From Promethearchaeota archaeon (lineage in GTDB: Archaea > Asgardarchaeota > Hermodarchaeia > Hermodarchaeales > Hermodarchaeaceae): DNA of 64,000 bases. The number at the start of each line of letters is the position of its first letter. Within the stretch, counting starts at the first letter, position 1. The translations under genes and the position numbers were made by a program. The stretch covers positions 1 to 64,000 of the forward strand of contig JBHLMG010000013.1 of assembly GCA_048938385.1 (NCBI GenBank), written 5' to 3'. Shown here one piece after another: positions 37,927-47,031 of the stretch. The notes below the pieces were generated by a model. It searched no databases and was not told where the DNA came from. It was given only the letters and a program-made list of their open reading frames with translations.

Positions 37927-38361
37927 TTAAGGTCCGGGTAGAAACAGTAGAGGGATAAGCACGATTGCTGCGACAACGATTAGGATCGCCGAGATGATGC
38001 CCATGATGATCATGAAGATAAAGGCAATAATTCCGACGATTATCGCTCCACCCCAGCTGACATCGAAGAAGCGTTTGAAGAGAGGTAGGTAGACGATCAA
38101 AGTAATGAAGCTTGAGATTACAAAGCTGAGGATGTCTGCGTAAGGAACAGATGGGAAGTACATCGTAAAGACAAAGCTGAAGATTGCCTGAAGTACACTG
38201 TTGATAATGGCACCAAGAAGGGCAACTAACAGGGCCTCACCGAAGGTCGTGTTAACCCCTGAGACCAGTCGTCCGGCAATGAAGAAGGCGATCGCTAATC
38301 CTAACCATAGGATAATTATCGCGATAATCACTGTGACTGCAAGGTAGAGTAAAATACCCAT
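37927..38361 (-). CDS. Membrane protein
   Basis: 4 TM segments. Confidence 0.75.
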   Translation of the reverse strand: MGILLYLAVTVIIAIIILWLGLAIAFFIAGRLVSGVNTTFGEALLVALLGAIINSVLQAIFSFVFTMYFPSVPYADILSFVISSFITLIVYLPLFKRFFDVSWGGAIIVGIIAFIFMIIMGIISAILIVVAAIVLIPLLFLPGP

Positions 38362-38577
38362 TTTTGTTACACCTTAAGTTAGGAGTAATTGCGCCTCCTA
38401 TTCATGAATACTGTTCTAAATAGATTGCTCCTGTCGATAGATTCTCGCTCAACGATAATCCCTGTGAACCCGAAAGGGTACCAAAGGGCGTCTCGTTGAG
38501 TTCACTTATCGAATTGCCTGAGTTAGGTTTAAAGGGGGTATCTTGGTCAGTGACCCTAAGAGCGGAGCGAAGGTTCT

Positions 38578-39915
38578 ATGCCGCATTTTCTTGATCTATT
38601 CCTCGACGAACTACACCAGAAACATGAAGCGCTACGCCGGCGCTTATCCGGTGAGGAATCCTCCGAACTGGATAGTATGCTAAAAACTGCGTTTCAGAAA
38701 GAATGGCATGAGTTACCCTTACCCAAGAAGCATGACTTCCGTGTTATAGCTGTTGATAGTGGACGAGCAACACGGGAATATGCTCCAGGTACCTTCATGT
38801 ATATCTGCCGCGCCAGTGCCTATACTTCCTGGGGATCTCCTCATCGCAAGGTGACTTCTAACGCCCATATTATCGCATCTACTCGAGAGCAGTTAAAAGA
38901 TCTCGTCAGCTTACGATCCGAACATATTGAGCATCAAGTGGCTCTAGAAGCAATACGCGAGACAAGTGATGTAGATTTAGTCTTAATTGATGGATCACTG
39001 TATGGACGAATCACACATGTCCCAATCTCCTTCAATTATCCTGGGGAACGAGCTCTCTATCTCCAGTATATGCAGACATTCATCCAACTCATCGAGGAGT
39101 GCCGGAAACGGAAAATTCTGCTTCTTGGCATCAGCAAAGACTCGGTTGCTCGACATCTCACTCGATTACTCCTTGAGAGTGTAAAAACCAAAGTCCTCAA
39201 GGACTTTGAACAAGTTCTCTCATCGGAGGATTTTGATCAGTTACTCCAATATATGGACACTGAACAGAAACAGACTATCGCAGGAATCCGGTTCCAACGC
39301 GAAGTCGGGTTGTCTGGAGGACAACGCGAACTCCTTGGAGATTTACTCTACGAGCTTCGACGTCCACGCCCTGATTTTCATTTAATTAATGCCTGGGCTA
39401 AAACGACTGGCTTTTCCACACCTATTGAGCCTTACCCTGATGTTCCGCTCTTTAAGTATGAGTCGAAGAATCCAGCAGATTATGTTCGGCGACGATTTGT
39501 GAATGCATACAACGATTATGAACACGAGGAGGATTTCGAAAAGTGGGCTATCCCAGTGATGCAGGACACATTTCAACTCCCAACCTTTGTCACTATTTGT
39601 ACCAAGTTAGCCCATAACGACACACCCCTCCGTGTTGATGTGCCTGCTTTTAGTGTCGGTTTACCAACTCGCCTCTCGCAAGTATCCTCTTCTCGAATGC
39701 TTGACCCAACTCCTCAGAGAGTAATCGATATTCTGGAAATCCTTCGTAGTGAATACGGAGGACGCGAATTATACAATGTCTATCTAGTTCGGGCCGATCA
39801 AGAGGCGCGGTTACCCATAAAAGATGTCACTACACTTTATGAACCCTTAGTGGAAAAAGAACTGAAAATCCCCCTTGTACCTCGACGTCGCGACCGGAGG
39901 ATTAGCTATGTCTGA
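38578..39915 (+). CDS. nurA: DNA double-strand break repair nuclease NurA
   Basis: AVDSG, LIDGSL, GISKDS; first gene of the operon. Confidence 0.88.
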   Translation: MPHFLDLFLDELHQKHEALRRRLSGEESSELDSMLKTAFQKEWHELPLPKKHDFRVIAVDSGRATREYAPGTFMYICRASAYTSWGSPHRKVTSNAHIIASTREQLKDLVSLRSEHIEHQVALEAIRETSDVDLVLIDGSLYGRITHVPISFNYPGERALYLQYMQTFIQLIEECRKRKILLLGISKDSVARHLTRLLLESVKTKVLKDFEQVLSSEDFDQLLQYMDTEQKQTIAGIRFQREVGLSGGQRELLGDLLYELRRPRPDFHLINAWAKTTGFSTPIEPYPDVPLFKYESKNPADYVRRRFVNAYNDYEHEEDFEKWAIPVMQDTFQLPTFVTICTKLAHNDTPLRVDVPAFSVGLPTRLSQVSSSRMLDPTPQRVIDILEILRSEYGGRELYNVYLVRADQEARLPIKDVTTLYEPLVEKELKIPLVPRRRDRRISYV

Positions 39916-41539
39916 AACCCCGAATGAAGAACCCGTAGGATTTATTGTCGAAGAAGCAATGGCCACTGAATTCATCTTTGCCAGCGACCGTAAACGGTAT
40001 CCCCCGAAGTTCGAGTATATTACAGTCAAATCAGAAGAACTCGTTGATGGTGTACTAAAACCGGTTGAGGTTTTAGCCCAGGTTGAACGCATCACCTCTC
40101 AAAGTCTCGCACTTCGCCGGGATTTAGACATCGAAGCCATATACAGAATTAAAGAAGCCGGAATTGACGATGTGAAAACCTGGGGGGTTGCCCGCGTCCT
40201 TGGATTTCTCGTCCCTACCCAGAAAGGGCACCCTCCCCGCATTCTCTTACCCCGGCGCGCAGTCACCCCTGGAAACCCCATATACATAGCTCCTGATAGT
40301 CTCTTAGCGAAATTTTACGAATATCCCCCTGAGGCTAGCTTGTATATTGGAAATCTCATTTCTCGTCCCCAAATTCCTGTAAATATTCGCATTAACGGCT
40401 TCCGTCGCCATGTAGCGATTTTAGCCCAAACAGGTGCAGGGAAAAGTTACCTCACCGGCGTCTTGATTGAAGAACTCATGCAACGCGGAGCAACCGTCAT
40501 CATCGTTGACCCTCATGCTGACTATGTATTCCTCAGTCAAACAGAAAACGGGGAGAAACATGAATTCTCAGATCGAGTAACAATCTTCCAAAATCCTGAA
40601 AGCACAGGACGATACAGCAAGAAAGACATTGGTCGAGTCGAAGACTACACGGTACGATTAGCTGATCTCGATTTCGATGAGCTTTGCAGCGTATGCGCAA
40701 TTGGTGAAAAATATACTAACATCCGCGCAGGGCTAGAAACCGCACTTCGGCGCCTCAAAGAACGGAATGTCGTGTATCTCCCTGAAGACATCGAAAACGA
40801 ACTCAATGTTGTGGCTAACACCGAGGACCCTGAGAAACATGTGAAGCTGGGAGCCCTCAACGCAATCAAATACATTCGGCGCTTACAGCGTCTGCGCGTC
40901 TTTTCGCGCAGCGGTGTTCCCATAGACCATATCATTCAGCCCTATCATGCCTCTGTAATCGACCTCTCTGGTCTCGGAAATCGTAGCACCGACTACATTG
41001 TTAGTCGACTACTGAATGATGTGTTCGAAGCTGTGACCACGGGTGCTTTCCCCTTTCCAGTATTTGTTGTCGTAGAAGAAGCCCATACCTTTGTGCCTCC
41101 CGATCCTCCAACTTATTCTCGTCGAATTATTCGTCGCATATCACAGGAAGGACGCAAGTTCGGGGTGTTCCTCCTCCTCATCAGTCAACGACCTGGTCGG
41201 ATTCACCCCGACAGTCTCAGCCAATGTAACAGCCAAATTGTCCTCAAGATTACCAATCCGCGAGACCAAAACGCTATAGCCCAATCCTCAGAACGATTAA
41301 GTGAAGACCTCATCCGCGACCTACCTGGTCTAAACATCGGTGAGGCCGTCGTTGTGGGTGATATTACTCGCACGCCGGTGATGGTTCAAGTTCGCTCCCG
41401 CTTGACGCGCGAAGGAGGTGCTGATATCGATGTAGTCTCTAGCCTGAAAAAGGCTAGAAAAGCTGCAGGCATCGAGAAACAACTAGCAGAAGACCGAAAA
41501 CGCGTGACGAAACTCAAAGGGGCCTTCTCTGAGGTGTAA
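39908..41539 (+). CDS. herA: HerA helicase/translocase
   Basis: HAS-barrel N-terminus, AQTGAGKS, DPHADY, EEAH, EGRKFG, SQRP; GGAGG before ATG 39908. Confidence 0.95.
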   Translation: MSETPNEEPVGFIVEEAMATEFIFASDRKRYPPKFEYITVKSEELVDGVLKPVEVLAQVERITSQSLALRRDLDIEAIYRIKEAGIDDVKTWGVARVLGFLVPTQKGHPPRILLPRRAVTPGNPIYIAPDSLLAKFYEYPPEASLYIGNLISRPQIPVNIRINGFRRHVAILAQTGAGKSYLTGVLIEELMQRGATVIIVDPHADYVFLSQTENGEKHEFSDRVTIFQNPESTGRYSKKDIGRVEDYTVRLADLDFDELCSVCAIGEKYTNIRAGLETALRRLKERNVVYLPEDIENELNVVANTEDPEKHVKLGALNAIKYIRRLQRLRVFSRSGVPIDHIIQPYHASVIDLSGLGNRSTDYIVSRLLNDVFEAVTTGAFPFPVFVVVEEAHTFVPPDPPTYSRRIIRRISQEGRKFGVFLLLISQRPGRIHPDSLSQCNSQIVLKITNPRDQNAIAQSSERLSEDLIRDLPGLNIGEAVVVGDITRTPVMVQVRSRLTREGGADIDVVSSLKKARKAAGIEKQLAEDRKRVTKLKGAFSEV

Positions 41540-41544
41540 ACATA

Positions 41545-42708
41545 GTGCCCATAACCATTCTTCATACATCTGACACCCACTTAGACCTTCCAGCTATCAA
41601 ATTTGGTTCTCGGCGCTATGAACGGAAAACCGATTTCCTCAAATCCTTTGATAGTGTTATTAAATATGCTCTGGAAAACAAACCCGATCTGTTCCTTCAT
41701 TCGGGTGACCTCTTTGATGGACTCAACCCACGAAATCCAGTGCGTGCCCATGTGATGGACGGATTCCGGAAACTCCATGAAAAACAGATTCCAATCTACA
41801 TCATTAGCGGAAACCACGATGTCCCTCGGGCGCGACGCCATGGAGTAGCCCCACTACTCGAATACCAAAAGGCCGGGTTTATCCACTTTTTTCAAGATTG
41901 GGAAACGATTCAAACAGAAACCATCAATCACAAAGGGTTAGAGATTGAAATTTCAGGAATCTCGTTCAATCCTTCCATTCCCCCCTCTGAAGACCCCCTT
42001 CGTAATCTATCGATTCCCGGAAAAGGGGATGTAAACATTCTATTAACCCATTACAATGTGGAAGGCCTTCGTGGGACTTTTCCCTTTGAACCCGATATCA
42101 TGCTCAAATCTGTCCCGAAGAATCTCACCTACCTGGCTTCAGGACATAACCACGAATTTCAGCAAGAAAAGGTTGGAAACACAACCATCTGCACTCCCGG
42201 GAGTACAGAACATGTATCTTTTGCCGAGGAAGGTCATAAAAAAGGGTGTGTATGGCTCGAAATGGATACAGACGGAGTTCAACACCTCAAACAAATTCCC
42301 CTAAACACACGACCCATGCAAACCATTAAAGTCATGATACCAGTCGATGCAGACATAAATCGAATGCTAATCAAGGAAATTGACCGGTTACGAAACCCCC
42401 AACTCGTTCTACGGTTTCGCCTTAAAGGCGTCATGACCATCAAATCAGCGGAAAAGTATCGCCGCGCCGAAGTTGTCCGCCATGGCTTCGCAAAATGCTT
42501 CTCCACTGAAGTCATTGACGAACTAGAATACCAAAGCCCTGATAAAGATCTTCAATTAGCAGAAGTGGAGCTAAAACCACCCATCACGGAATACAAAGAG
42601 TATGTCACTGATCTCTTCGAGAAGGAGAAAGACGAAGAGAAGAAAGTCCTCTTGAAAAAAGCCTTAGATCGAGGTATTGGACTTTTAGAAGAAACCGGGG
42701 GTTGGTAG
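41545..42708 (+). CDS. mre11: Mre11/SbcD nuclease
   Basis: SDTH, GDLFD, GNHD, THY, GHNH. Confidence 0.93.
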   Translation: MPITILHTSDTHLDLPAIKFGSRRYERKTDFLKSFDSVIKYALENKPDLFLHSGDLFDGLNPRNPVRAHVMDGFRKLHEKQIPIYIISGNHDVPRARRHGVAPLLEYQKAGFIHFFQDWETIQTETINHKGLEIEISGISFNPSIPPSEDPLRNLSIPGKGDVNILLTHYNVEGLRGTFPFEPDIMLKSVPKNLTYLASGHNHEFQQEKVGNTTICTPGSTEHVSFAEEGHKKGCVWLEMDTDGVQHLKQIPLNTRPMQTIKVMIPVDADINRMLIKEIDRLRNPQLVLRFRLKGVMTIKSAEKYRRAEVVRHGFAKCFSTEVIDELEYQSPDKDLQLAEVELKPPITEYKEYVTDLFEKEKDEEKKVLLKKALDRGIGLLEETGGW

Positions 42709-42711
42709 AAA

Positions 42712-45078
42712 ATGGTAATCTTGCGTCAACTCAAAGCCCAAGATTTCAAACACTTAGATGTCGATTTCACCTTCCCTCAAGGAATCCTGGCTATTAGCGG
42801 ACCCAACGAGTCAGGAAAATCCTCCATATTCGAAGCAGTCCTCTTTGCCTTTTTCGGAAGAACCCACAAAGCCCCCATGGGTAACAAAGATCGCCTCATC
42901 AACTACGACGCCGATAAGCTATTCGTCCGCCTACACTTCGAAATCGATGGAACCACTTACCGAATCATTCGACACCTACACAAAAATCGTCCCAGCCAAG
43001 CTGACCTGCATAAGATATCGCCTAAGGGTGAGCTCATCCCTCTTGCAACGGGCGTGACGAATGTCAACTCAGAGATTGAAAGCCTTCTAAACGGGATTGG
43101 ACTCAACGACCTCCTAGCTAGCAATGTTGTGCTCCAGAAAGATTTAGACCGACTAAGCCAAATGGCAAAAATGGAGCGAAGAGATATTATTAACGCGATG
43201 ATGGGTCGGGACTGCTTTACCCGATCCGTCGACAAATTAGCTAACGATCTTCGCCCCCTAAAACCAGCGCAGATATCAGAACACAATCTTTTGAAAGAGC
43301 TCAAAGTACGCCACGACGAATACCTCAAGAATCAACGAGAATGTGAAGAAAAACAAGAGTCCATGAAAAAAATCGAGGTAGAGCTAAAAAATAAAAGTCA
43401 AGTCTTTGCGCAAACAGAGAAAAAATTTAGGGCTGTCAAAGCTTACAAAACCGCAAAGGAAGAGCGTGAGCGAATTCAACGGGAAATCGAGCACAACGAT
43501 GAAACTACGACACAGCTTGAAGCCCAAATCGCTAGTTTAGGTAAACTCCAACCCCAACAAAAGAAGCTCCAAAAACAAGCAAAACAGCGCGAATACTTGG
43601 AAAAGGATGATCGCGTATTTCAACAGGTCCTTGCTGGTGCTGAACAACTTCAAGCCAAAATCGATGAACAGAACATGGCTTCGAAGACTATCTCAAGCCT
43701 CGAAGAACAAATTGGAGAACTCGCCCCCTTACAGGAAGTCGTCAGGGAATATGAGATCATAAAGGAACAGCGTCACAAAGCCGAAGCCACTCAACGCCGC
43801 GTTTTTTCTCCTCTTCTGTACATTCCCTCAATTAGCTTACTATCAGCAGGGATTGTCGCTATCTTCTTAAATCTAATAGCCGGTCTAGCGCTCATTCTCA
43901 TCTCTATACCGTTTTTGGGCTATTTGCTGTACAGCTACTTCTCCTATAGCCGTATCCAACCTCGACTCCAAGCTTTAAAGTTGCGAGAACAAGAACTAAG
44001 TGATCAAGTTGCTCAGTATCGGGCGAAGGAAACCTTTCAAAGTCAATTAACTGCGCAGCTCGAACAGAAACAGCAGCTAACTAATCAAATCTCGATTTTA
44101 TCTCAGGAAGTACACAGTAAACTCCAATCCCTCTCTCCTGCCCTATTAGAAGGCGTTACTATTCGCTCTTACACTGAAGTCCCCAATCTCCAAAATGCCG
44201 TAAAAACTGTTGAAAAAACCCTTCTCGGACTAAAAGCAAACCGAGATTCCGTGCTTGACCAACTCCAATCCATTAACGACCAATTGAGCCGCTTTGCCTC
44301 CTTGAAAAAGGACTTAACGCAAAGCGAGAAACGCCATATCACCCTTCAAGAACAACTAGCTCAAATCTCACTTCCCATTCTTCCTGACGACATACAGACC
44401 TACTCTGAAAAACTATACGAGGAGCTAGATCAACAGCATACGACGCTAGGTCAAGAAAAAGTAAGATTACAAACACAACGGGAAAGTACTAAAAAACGCC
44501 TCGATGAACTAGTTACCGAACTCAAGGCTAACGAAGGCGTTATCGAAGAATATGCACAAAAAGAACAAGCTGTTAAGAAACTGGATGAGAACCTCAAATC
44601 TGGACAGCTAACAATCCAGCTGATTCGTGAAGTCGCAGAACGCGGCCGAGAACAAGTTCGGCCCCGCGTAGTCAATGTGATGGAACGCATTCTTGCAGCG
44701 ATCACGGATGGGAAGTATCGATTTCCAAAACTCAGCGAAGATTTCAGCTTAAAGGTGTATTCTGCGGAAGCAGGAGAGTATGTTGACGCCAACCTCTACA
44801 GTGGAGGCACGGAAGACCAATTCCTATTGGCACTCCGGCTAGGATTTGCCATTGCCTTGCTACCTCAAGGACGCGGGGCGACCCCTCAATTTCTCTTTCT
44901 CGATGAACCCTTCGGTGGTTCTGATATCCAACGCCGCGATAACATTATTCGCCTCCTTAAAGATGAACTATCCCAACGATTTCAGCAAATCATAGTCGTG
45001 AGCCATCAGACAGCCGTACTATCAGCATCCGAATACCAGTTTCGAATGGCAAACGGGCGCCTTTTTCATTCTGATTAA
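42712..45078 (+). CDS. rad50: Rad50/SbcC-like SMC ATPase with a central transmembrane hairpin and no zinc hook
   Basis: GPNESGKS, YSGG, FLDEPF, VSH; coiled coils; hydrophobic residues ~364-412; no CxxC. Confidence 0.88.
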   Translation: MVILRQLKAQDFKHLDVDFTFPQGILAISGPNESGKSSIFEAVLFAFFGRTHKAPMGNKDRLINYDADKLFVRLHFEIDGTTYRIIRHLHKNRPSQADLHKISPKGELIPLATGVTNVNSEIESLLNGIGLNDLLASNVVLQKDLDRLSQMAKMERRDIINAMMGRDCFTRSVDKLANDLRPLKPAQISEHNLLKELKVRHDEYLKNQRECEEKQESMKKIEVELKNKSQVFAQTEKKFRAVKAYKTAKEERERIQREIEHNDETTTQLEAQIASLGKLQPQQKKLQKQAKQREYLEKDDRVFQQVLAGAEQLQAKIDEQNMASKTISSLEEQIGELAPLQEVVREYEIIKEQRHKAEATQRRVFSPLLYIPSISLLSAGIVAIFLNLIAGLALILISIPFLGYLLYSYFSYSRIQPRLQALKLREQELSDQVAQYRAKETFQSQLTAQLEQKQQLTNQISILSQEVHSKLQSLSPALLEGVTIRSYTEVPNLQNAVKTVEKTLLGLKANRDSVLDQLQSINDQLSRFASLKKDLTQSEKRHITLQEQLAQISLPILPDDIQTYSEKLYEELDQQHTTLGQEKVRLQTQRESTKKRLDELVTELKANEGVIEEYAQKEQAVKKLDENLKSGQLTIQLIREVAERGREQVRPRVVNVMERILAAITDGKYRFPKLSEDFSLKVYSAEAGEYVDANLYSGGTEDQFLLALRLGFAIALLPQGRGATPQFLFLDEPFGGSDIQRRDNIIRLLKDELSQRFQQIIVVSHQTAVLSASEYQFRMANGRLFHSD

Positions 45079-45117: not shown

Positions 45118-46515
45118 TTGTTTCTATGCTATTTCTGGGCAGTGACACTGGAGAATCCCATTATGAATGTACCCGCGCTCCAGATCAATCGATGGAAAAA
45201 GGCGTTCCCCTTAGCTGGATTTAAACCCGCGTTAAATCCCCCTACTGATGCCGAACGCCGGTTAGCTCAACAGTTTTGCCCAGCTATTTTTGTGGATCTT
45301 GCCCTCATAAAGGAAGAACAAGCTGACATCGCTCATCACCTTGGAATCGACCAGAAAAAAAGTGGTTTTGTTGCGTCATTAAGGGAACGGGTTCGCGGTC
45401 GAGATTTTGCGGGAATGGCGGATGCACTCTTCTTATTCTGTCTCGGTGAGTTTCCGAGTAATCTCACTGGGGCTAAACTCGCAATCCTTGGTGTTGCCCT
45501 TCCTGAGAGCGAACTTCCTTGGGACAAAGAGATGCACCGTGTACTTGATGAGTTCAGGACTCGTCTTCGCGCCGACTACGAAAAGGAACTGTTTGAATTT
45601 ATCAGGCAACTCTATTACACGATATTTCCCTCAGAGGAAACTCCTACCTGCGTAATTAAGTACCGTGTCAGCCAAGACCCTGCTGACTCCAATGTATTTG
45701 GCATTCAATACTTCGCCTATTGGCCAATCCAGCTATTTCCAAGGCATTTGTTCGATTATGAACCCATTACAGTTGTTGTCCGAAAAGAAGGAAAAATATT
45801 CGAGCCCCTACTCGTTGCTTTTAACGCAGAATATGGAGCGCGACCTTTATTGAAAGGTAAGCGCCCGGGACACAGTATTCGGACTTTTTTCAACTGGGAT
45901 AGTCGAGATTTACAGATCGGTCCGTCCGACTTTAATCCGATGGCCGATTACATGACTAAGGCCTTTGGGGGAAGTTATTACTACGAAGAGATACCTGATG
46001 ATCGCCGGTTAAGCCACATCAACAACCTTCAGTGTGCAGACAGCCCCATCGCGCTAAATGTACAAACCAAGTGGCACTCCTATGACCTCTGTAATGCTGA
46101 TGTGCTTCGAAGTCAAAGACCCCTTCCCTGCAAGCTTCACCCACTCAAAACTCAGGATTTGCTACATATAGAATGGAATGTGCTGGATCCCTTCCAAGCG
46201 CCATTTCTTTATCCTAATATCGGAAAGAAAAACGCCCTGATGCATTTTCCTTTGAACGCTGCTACACTATGGCAAGGTGAAACCTATCGCCGGTGGAGCG
46301 ACTACGCGTTAGTCGAGTTTCATATCAAGCATGGTCGCCCATCACAAACGGTTTCCAATTTGTATGCTTATCAGGTTGGCTTGTTCATTGACTTGTTTGC
46401 AGAAATCACCGGTGAAGGGTTAGGCTTAAGCATGTGGCCTCTCATCGAAGCACGCGAGCGTGAAATCAAGGATACCCTCTCATTCATCAAACGGTTGCGC
46501 CGATCCAAAGACTAG
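45118..46515 (+). CDS. Hypothetical protein, possibly Vps62/NPP1-like
   Basis: FCPAIF and IQYFAYWP...HLFDYEPITV; real start probably downstream. Confidence 0.6.
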   Translation: MFLCYFWAVTLENPIMNVPALQINRWKKAFPLAGFKPALNPPTDAERRLAQQFCPAIFVDLALIKEEQADIAHHLGIDQKKSGFVASLRERVRGRDFAGMADALFLFCLGEFPSNLTGAKLAILGVALPESELPWDKEMHRVLDEFRTRLRADYEKELFEFIRQLYYTIFPSEETPTCVIKYRVSQDPADSNVFGIQYFAYWPIQLFPRHLFDYEPITVVVRKEGKIFEPLLVAFNAEYGARPLLKGKRPGHSIRTFFNWDSRDLQIGPSDFNPMADYMTKAFGGSYYYEEIPDDRRLSHINNLQCADSPIALNVQTKWHSYDLCNADVLRSQRPLPCKLHPLKTQDLLHIEWNVLDPFQAPFLYPNIGKKNALMHFPLNAATLWQGETYRRWSDYALVEFHIKHGRPSQTVSNLYAYQVGLFIDLFAEITGEGLGLSMWPLIEAREREIKDTLSFIKRLRRSKD

Positions 46516-46572: not shown

Positions 46573-47031
46573 GTGACCATGCCTTCTGTATACTCGACCG
46601 ATACCACTCCCGGGGTGACGACTAGTCAGTTTACTCAGCGCTTCTGGTTAGCCTTACTTATCGCCCTTGTAATAGTATGCGTGCTTTGGGGTTTTTTCCA
46701 ACCTTATCCTTTCAACATTCTCCTCTGGGTAATCGCGCTTGCTTTTCTGATCATCTTCCTTTTCATGATCTACCGTGGTTCTCGTGGCCCTCCACAAATC
46801 AAACTCGCTGAAGTTCGACGATTAATTTCCTGCGAGAGCTGCGGTGTGGAAACTGAAGGTCCCTTCGAAACAGGTGATCATGTCTTCCGTAAAGTCGGAT
46901 CGTGTCCACGCTGTGGAGGCTTACTTTATGTGAAAGCCATTTACTCTATCGAAGGAAAAGAGCCCCTGAAACGTCAGCAGCCACCAGAACAAACCACAAC
47001 TGAGGCTAGAGAAGCGCCATCTCAAAGTTAA
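46573..47031 (+). CDS. Membrane protein with C-terminal zinc finger
   Basis: 2 TM segments; CESC...GDHVF...CPRC. Confidence 0.8.
   Translation: MTMPSVYSTDTTPGVTTSQFTQRFWLALLIALVIVCVLWGFFQPYPFNILLWVIALAFLIIFLFMIYRGSRGPPQIKLAEVRRLISCESCGVETEGPFETGDHVFRKVGSCPRCGGLLYVKAIYSIEGKEPLKRQQPPEQTTTEAREAPSQS

Follow-up and report, generated by a model that had tools for sequence, protein, structure and literature searches.

Can a Rad50 protein do without its zinc hook, and what may stand at the tip of its coiled-coil arms in that case? To our knowledge, the zinc hook of the Mre11-Rad50 complex is regarded as both universal and essential. The question is raised by an open reading frame (ORF) of 788 amino acids in a 64,000-nucleotide stretch of DNA from a Promethearchaeota archaeon of the family Hermodarchaeaceae (assembly GCA_048938385.1, contig JBHLMG010000013.1, positions 1 to 64,000; this whole stretch is called the window below). 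We have found that this ORF, which closes a tightly coupled nurA-herA-mre11-rad50 operon, encodes a Rad50-type ATPase with no hook, and that the apex of its predicted coiled coil is most likely a membrane hairpin. It does not stand by itself, since a whole Rad50 branch apparently does without the zinc hook and has an apparent membrane anchor at the same site. This branch spans Asgard archaea, Thermoproteota, Chloroflexota, Dictyoglomota, Actinomycetota and Bacillota, and comprises hundreds of sequence clusters.

By its motifs, domain matches and fold, the ORF at 42712-45078 is a Rad50-type ATP-binding cassette (ABC) ATPase. It contains the Pfam domains AAA_23, SMC_N and SbcC_Walker_B, and its top NCBIfam models are archaeal Rad50 equivalogs, which it matches with 116 bits against cut-offs of 700-1087. 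Over the whole protein, the best score with the Rad50 equivalogs (NF041034, NF003034, NF002244, NF002572 and NF041035) is 116 bits for a cut-off of 1000. Among solved structures, the nearest in sequence are the Rad50 heads from M. jannaschii (the best), T. maritima and P. furiosus (E=5e-24; matched PDB entries 5f3w and 3aux), and the top fold found by Foldseek is the C. thermophilum Rad50 of the MRN complex (7zr1). In an alignment of 38 homologues, with identity down to 21%, the catalytic columns are invariant, i.e., Walker A G30-x-N32-E33-x-G35-K36-S37, the Q-loop Q142, the signature S697-G-G-T-x-D702-Q703, Walker B D731-E732 and the H-loop H765. The protein thus shares with the Rad50/SbcC family the split ABC head, the long antiparallel coiled coil and an adjoining Mre11 gene, and lacks the CxxC hook. 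Its only cysteines are at residues 168 and 211, and the zinc-hook profile PF04423 finds nothing significant in the rad50 gene or across the genome. The apex does not carry the hinge domain of SMC proteins proper either; the SMC of this genome is a different ORF of 1192 residues on contig C23.

What lies at the apex instead is hydrophobic. The longest stretch free of D, E, K and R covers residues 364-413, that is, 50 residues, and the highest 19-residue Kyte-Doolittle mean is 2.83 (residues 381-399). The hairpin is centred at 0.50 of the length of the protein. Modelled with AlphaFold2 on the 38 homologues (mean predicted local distance difference test score 85), the protein has a coiled coil between the two head halves, with outward helices over residues 183-364 and inward helices over 388-665. 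In this model the outgoing arm consists of a helix at 183-291, a short break at 292-295 and a helix at 296-364; after a further break at S365-P366 come a helix at 367-386, a one-residue turn at N387 and the returning helix 388-472. The original prediction had described an intact Rad50-type ATPase with no CxxC and with an uncharged segment of about 49 residues (aa 364-412, nt 43801-43947) at the coiled-coil midpoint, and these points are all borne out, the segment being longer by just one residue (aa 364-413, nt 43801-43950).

The membrane character of the segment was judged by comparative statistics on the 38-homologue alignment. The 43 hairpin columns have a mean Kyte-Doolittle value of +1.83, with a minimum of 1.34, and 2.5% charged residues versus 35-39% in the adjoining coils. 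On the other hand, the sequence itself is little conserved there, as the identity between the query and distant members is 20% in the hairpin columns, 13-17% in the coils and 37-44% in the heads. The flanks are basic: the 12 residues before and after the hairpin hold 3.8 and 2.9 K/R, respectively, against 1.8 expected, while D/E are depleted (1.4 and 0.7). The turn comprises 1-3 residues in the homologues, typically N, G or P. A stretch that stays hydrophobic while its sequence drifts freely, and that has basic flanks and a tight polar turn, is what established membrane-protein topology leads one to expect of a helical hairpin which enters the membrane and keeps its two ends in the cytoplasm. 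In a soluble bundle one would expect a conserved core and outer faces that are polar and usually charged. Statistically, the apex thus resembles a membrane hairpin, and it would most likely insert into the membrane.

This feature is no quirk of one genome. A search of 5.8 billion proteins yielded 108 homologues, and ~96 of these are uncharged over 35-54 residues at the midpoint. A CxxC in the middle occurs in just two, which are the most distant proteins and clearly different. In a separate exhaustive search of 1.84 billion cluster representatives (50% identity), 232 representatives matched at E<=1e-30; among the best 146 of these 232, ~135 show a mid-protein hydrophobic peak with a Kyte-Doolittle value of at least 1.9, and none has a CxxC there. 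The Asgard hook-type Rad50 paralogues that we examined reach maximal values of 0.9-1.6 and carry the CxxC at the midpoint. Given this recurrence and the low values of the hook type, the hairpin is beyond what chance would produce.

We further calculated a maximum likelihood tree of the Rad50 heads (LG+C20, 40 rows) which included the Asgard hook types and SMC outgroups. All hairpin types are split from both, with a support of 99/98. Within the hairpin side, the window Rad50 falls in an archaeal subclade (98/93), where sequences of Asgard archaea, Thermofilaceae, Nitrososphaeria and Bathyarchaeia are interleaved; its sister subclade comprises Dictyoglomota, Chloroflexota and Rubrobacter, and Bacillota and others stand further out. 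Joining the Asgard hairpin and hook types costs 97.9 log-likelihood units in an approximately unbiased (AU) test (p=0.0001; the group was chosen with the tree already known). In a quick Mre11 tree (LG+G4) the internal groupings are those of the Rad50 tree, while the support for the exact bipartition of transmembrane and hook types is low (18) because one long hook-type row (L020) floats. In addition, the two sides differ in their motifs. The whole hairpin clade, the Bacillota members included, is marked by the Walker A form NE[SA]GKS and the signature SGGTxDQ, versus N[GS]xGK[ST] and SGG[ED] in the hook type.

The partner genes tell the same. The window HerA is 47-52% identical to HerA of hairpin-type operons from three other Asgard families, and at most 30% to the hook-type proteins. 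For Mre11, identity is 33-39% to the hairpin type versus 24-30% to the hook type (nominally 34% in one short partial match), and the window NurA is 30-31% identical over its full length to hairpin-type NurA and has no BLAST match to hook-type NurA. That is, the identities of all four operon proteins follow the Rad50 type and not the taxon. Judged by these trees and motifs, the hairpin type is a separate clade, and not an Asgard hook-type Rad50 that has gone hookless. The original prediction had described the zinc hook as replaced by the hairpin, which is misleading as history, as the clade is a distinct one with its own NurA, HerA and Mre11, and the two types coexist in two genomes; the phylogeny it had proposed, run here against hook-type Rad50 and SMC, puts the hairpin side apart. 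A 60%-identical orthologue with the same operon is found in a record of Candidatus Hermodarchaeota. In some Thermoproteota and bacteria only mre11 and rad50 are linked, and in others, e.g., a Dictyoglomaceae bacterium, all four genes are. The latter operon (L033:3067-9844) is a full hairpin-type nurA-herA-mre11-rad50 set, with a HerA matching that of the window at E=5e-123, and is likely the result of an inter-domain transfer of the whole module.

To see how the two types are distributed, we used 201 sampled genomes of the phylum. The window Rad50 has full-length orthologues in 18 of the 18 other genomes of the window's family, and only sporadic ones elsewhere. Other Asgard families have the same gene order with a Rad50 that carries the CxxC at its exact midpoint and no hydrophobic segment; one such protein that was checked gives a Pfam zinc-hook match. 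In two Asgard genomes (G142 and G029, 91-94% complete) both operons are present in full, the hook type on one large contig and the hairpin type on another. In GC content and tetranucleotide usage the two contig stretches of each genome are each other's best match (r=0.90 and 0.67), so contamination of the metagenome-assembled genomes, or a binning artefact, is an unlikely source of the two operons.

In the window's own genome, 89.8% complete, we searched with AAA_23, the zinc-hook model, the Rad50 and Mre11 equivalogs and nine hook-type Rad50 and Mre11 proteins. No second, hook-bearing Rad50 was found there, the matches being the window genes, SMC, a 992-aa SMC-like ORF and UvrA, and no second Mre11 or SbcD homologue was found either. 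None of the 19 matching family genomes yielded a hook-type Rad50, and the best match everywhere is the hairpin-type gene; the second copy whose presence the original prediction had left to be checked was thus found in none of these assemblies. Overall, since both complete operons occur in G142 and G029, the hairpin type is a second system able to stand beside the hook type, and it is alone in the window's family. At least one Asgard family has the hairpin type only, others have retained the hook type, which eukaryotes inherited, and both types are present in some.

Is this branch already known? The window Rad50 is a member of a large and old hookless branch of Rad50/SbcC that is labelled YhaN/COG4717-like or "AAA family ATPase" in databases, and this branch is barely described. 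Its only studied relative is SbcE, which is not known to have been examined as a membrane protein. The pair SbcE (YhaN) and SbcF (YhaO) of B. subtilis (Krishnamurthy et al. 2010, PMC2811018) shares with the window system an SMC/SbcC-like ATPase with no CxxC and a hydrophobic centre, and an Mre11/SbcD-like phosphoesterase. The central domain of SbcE is conserved, hydrophobic and insoluble when overproduced, and SbcE works with the nuclease SbcF in double-strand-break repair and transformation (PMC2811018). This domain was not described as a membrane anchor in that study (PMC2811018). The window Rad50 has two features of the YhaN/SbcE type, namely a hydrophobic centre in place of CxxC and a phosphoesterase partner. 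Bacillota relatives and JGI-named "YhaN" proteins have the Walker A form NE[AS]GK[ST] (NEAGKT in the latter) and the central hairpin, as the window Rad50 does. The Bacillota members lie on the hairpin side of the tree, but in a distant, long-branched subclade with no NurA-HerA linkage. B. subtilis also keeps a hook-type SbcCD. The resemblance to YhaN/SbcE that had been proposed from the signature region therefore holds for the clade motifs (NE[SA]GKS and SGGTxDQ) and for the hairpin of the JGI-named proteins; it was drawn from the published description of SbcE, the Bacillota relatives and these JGI-named proteins. A homologue search seeded with a Brevibacillus protein returned mostly Brevibacillus proteins, and B. 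subtilis YhaN was not among its matches. The Pfam model AAA_27 (PF13514) was rejected as a YhaN marker, because the window Rad50 scores 23.5 bits (cut-off 22), yet hook-type Asgard Rad50 proteins score 25.8 and 30.5.

The canonical archaeal NurA-HerA-Mre11-Rad50 system (Sulfolobales, Pyrococcus and M. jannaschii; NF041034, NF003034, NF040819 and NF041031) has the same four families in one operon and is also alike in the Rad50 head, the Mre11 motifs, the HerA and NurA domains and the predicted long antiparallel arms. Unlike the canonical Rad50, however, that of the window has a hydrophobic hairpin at the site of the CxxC hook, with NESGKS and SGGTEDQ as Walker A and signature against the canonical N[GS]xGK[ST] and SGG[ED], and all four window proteins score far under the canonical equivalog cut-offs (116 vs 1000 bits for Rad50, 212 vs 970 for HerA). 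The Asgard hook-type operons (L011-L016, L020-L022, L051 and L052) come from the same phylum, with the same gene order and similar gene sizes; their Rad50 proteins are 22-39% identical to the window Rad50, mostly matching in the head regions alone.

In the searchable literature we found no transmembrane Rad50, SbcC or SMC-like protein beyond the SbcE paper, though the ABC-ATPase classification of Krishnan et al. 2020 may name the clade; in a 2026 review on the NurA of Asgard archaea, neither the membrane nor the hook is brought up. The novelty is smaller than was first suggested, as the family is very large and the hydrophobic, insoluble central domain of SbcE, with no CxxC, was described in 2009. 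New here are the phylogeny of a separate module with its AU test, the co-variation of the four genes, the two-operon genomes and the family-wide absence of the hook type.

As to function, the reading that we favour, and hold to be fairly probable, is that of a membrane-tethered end-resection machine serving general repair in this lineage. The apex would form a helix-turn-helix of two hydrophobic helices of ~20 residues that dips into or spans the cytoplasmic membrane, so that the two arms of the coiled coil and the ATPase head would remain in the cytoplasm. In the membrane, the hairpin would take the role of the zinc hook, with the arm tips held, and probably paired, within the plane of the membrane. 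Two copies each of Mre11 and Rad50, together with HerA-NurA, would make up a machine for the recognition and resection of DNA ends working within ~25 nm of the membrane. Because it is the only Mre11-Rad50 machine found in the Hermodarchaeota-like lineage, it presumably carries the general end processing of double-strand breaks there. The pairing in the membrane and the repair role are both what we infer. As for its history, the four-gene module is a separate lineage, which would have passed back and forth between Asgard archaea, Thermoproteota and a number of bacterial phyla, and which would have displaced the hook-type operon in the window's family, while other Asgard families keep the hook type. 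A bolder form of this reading takes the module as a distinct, laterally mobile, membrane-embedded end-processing machine that works at the envelope on incoming or foreign linear DNA or on membrane-attached chromosome, with its arms joined in the bilayer and not by zinc, and that has wholly supplanted the hook-type complex in Hermodarchaeota; taken with all its parts, we regard it as possible but rather doubtful.

If the hairpin does lie in the membrane, nature has made an experiment on the purpose of the hook, namely whether it serves the pairing of arm tips or tethering, and the resection of DNA ends can be run from the membrane. If the module has also wholly supplanted the hook-type complex in Hermodarchaeota, the membrane would be where double-strand-break repair is organised in these close relatives of eukaryotes.

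Several points weigh against this reading. Helix 1 is just marginally hydrophobic on a Hessa-type scale (19 residues, about +0.6 kcal/mol, while the clearly hydrophobic helix 2 reaches about -1.1), and the insertion into the membrane rests on sequence statistics. The nested Chloroflexota members L035 and L042 have no hairpin, i.e., it is dispensable in some contexts. SbcE-GFP is reported to form polar or nucleoid-associated foci and no uniform membrane stain (PMC2811018). For the separate origin, the choice of the AU-test group after the fact counts in the same direction; and a hook-type operon may be missed in a genome of 89.8% completeness, so that the argument for its absence is carried by the 19 incomplete genomes together.

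Alternatively, the module may be a specialised accessory system for DNA at the envelope, such as linear DNA that is injected by viruses, taken up or transferred in a conjugation-like manner, or chromosome ends attached to the membrane, with general recombination served otherwise. Uptake, defence and the tethering of chromosomes had been put forward in the original prediction as possible roles. That two Asgard genomes have the hook-type operon in full as well would fit such non-redundant roles, as would the patchy distribution in the phylum, fixed in one family and sporadic in others, and the lateral transfer suggested by the interleaving of Asgard, Thermoproteota and bacterial members in the tree. 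In competent B. subtilis, SbcE and SbcF accumulate at the pole where DNA is taken up (PMC2811018), and the window HerA weakly matches the models of anti-phage HerA and of CedD. However, the hairpin type is the sole Mre11-Rad50 found in all 19 family genomes, and the neighbour genes, here and in the named relatives, are housekeeping genes, with neither defence islands nor uptake machinery. PADLOC gives only generic ATPase-level matches for Rad50 (LmuB, 88 bits) and HerA, far under the family cut-offs, and none for NurA, Mre11 or the 465-aa ORF downstream of rad50. We thus consider this accessory role unlikely, though it is the strongest of the alternatives. The known anti-phage systems (Lamassu LmuB, Mads and HerA-based ones) were rejected as candidates, as none has a complete set of specific component matches here.

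It is more improbable that the apex stays outside the membrane as a soluble, lipid-free dimerisation core, a four-helix bundle of two Rad50 arms that substitutes for the zinc hook. The hook is known to be modular and can be swapped for an SMC hinge (PMC6969161), the weakness of helix 1 suits a soluble core, and AlphaFold2 packs both helices as a continuation of the coiled coil. These points have to be set against some 43-50 consecutive residues that are nearly chargeless in hundreds of sequences while drifting freely, against flanks that fit the positive-inside pattern, and against the corresponding domain of SbcE, which is wholly insoluble when overproduced. Finally, that the lineage's own Asgard hook-type Rad50 dropped its CxxC and gained a hydrophobic apex in situ is hardly credible. 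The gene order nurA-herA-mre11-rad50, which the window shares with the hook-type Asgard operons, would fit this, but the split of the tree and the AU test go against it, all four genes are closer to those of Thermoproteota and other hairpin-type operons than to Asgard hook-type ones, the class-specific Walker A and signature motifs are common to the bacterial members, and both types coexist in G142 and G029.

The membrane-tethered resection machine that we favour would be encoded by the four genes listed in Table 1, and the Pfam and NCBIfam assignments and the junctions bear out the full operon that was originally described. The genes nurA and herA overlap by 8 nt (ATGTCTGA), and the intergenic gaps are 5 nt between herA and mre11 and 3 nt between mre11 and rad50. 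The herA ORF opens at TTG 39875, and its start is most likely ATG 39908, which GGAGG precedes. HerA has an intact P-loop (Walker A QTGAGKS and Walker B VVVEEAH). Aligned to the M. jannaschii Mre11 (4tug), the window Mre11 keeps the motifs DTH, GDLFD, GNHD and GHNH.

Table 1. Positions in the window of the operon genes and of the rad50 features discussed in the text.
Feature	Position	Strand	Description	Basis
Candidate TATA-like element	38528..38533	+	TTTAAA, ~45 nt upstream of the nurA start	Predicted from sequence reading
nurA	38578..39915	+	445 aa, 5'-3' nuclease of the resection module	Pfam NurA PF09376, E=6e-15
herA	39908..41539	+	543 aa, hexameric DNA translocase	Pfam PF01935, E=1e-36; NCBIfam HerA 212 bits, under cut-off
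mre11	41545..42708	+	387 aa, nuclease partner of Rad50	Metallophos PF00149; best NCBIfam model Mre11_Sulfo, 110 bits
rad50	42712..45078	+	788 aa, stop-free; hookless Rad50-type ABC ATPase	Pfam/NCBIfam, PDB and fold matches, AlphaFold2 model
Walker A	42799..42822	+	GPNESGKS (aa 30-37), clade-specific NE[SA]GKS form	Invariant columns; comparison with hook-type Rad50
Uncharged hydrophobic apex	43801..43950	+	aa 364-413; predicted helix 367-386, turn N387, helix 388 to ~410	Composition, alignment, AlphaFold2
ABC signature	44800..44820	+	SGGTEDQ (aa 697-703)	Alignment, class comparison
Walker B	44890..44907	+	FLFLDE (aa 727-732)	Alignment, class comparison
H-loop	45004..45006	+	His765	Invariant column

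Some observations were made beside these. The two Chloroflexota proteins (L035:3668-7549 and L042:3803-7486) lie inside the hairpin clade with no hydrophobic apex, an apparent secondary loss or remodelling, and in the L035 protein a CxxC lies off the centre, at residue 467 of 1293. The 992-aa SMC-like ATPase of the window's genome (G000, contig C22:18770-21748) has no CxxC and no hydrophobic apex, and its branch in the Rad50 tree is very long; it may be an SMC-related protein specific to archaea, of which a 942-aa ORF in G033 (C43) may be the counterpart. In a member of the Nitrososphaerales (L028:8291-9616), a repair-associated Nre gene (Nre_N and Nre_C) lies immediately 3' of the hairpin-type mre11-rad50.

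Directly 3' of rad50 in the window is a 465-aa ORF (45118-46515, + strand) with no Pfam, NCBIfam or PADLOC match. Its close homologues (E ~1e-240) follow the hairpin-type rad50 at a distance of one or two genes in a Hermodarchaeota and a Thorarchaeota record (L024 and L023, respectively), where an opposite-strand GNAT acetyltransferase gene separates the two. In the ESM Atlas it gives unnamed clusters and a weak Vps62 lead (0.85). It is followed by a 152-aa protein (46573-47031, + strand) with weak membrane-helix and zinc-ribbon matches, all under cut-off. Just upstream of the operon, on the opposite strand, is a predicted multi-helix membrane protein of 144 aa (37927-38361, - strand), with a sub-threshold match to a holin family of four transmembrane helices (17.9 bits versus a cut-off of 28.8).

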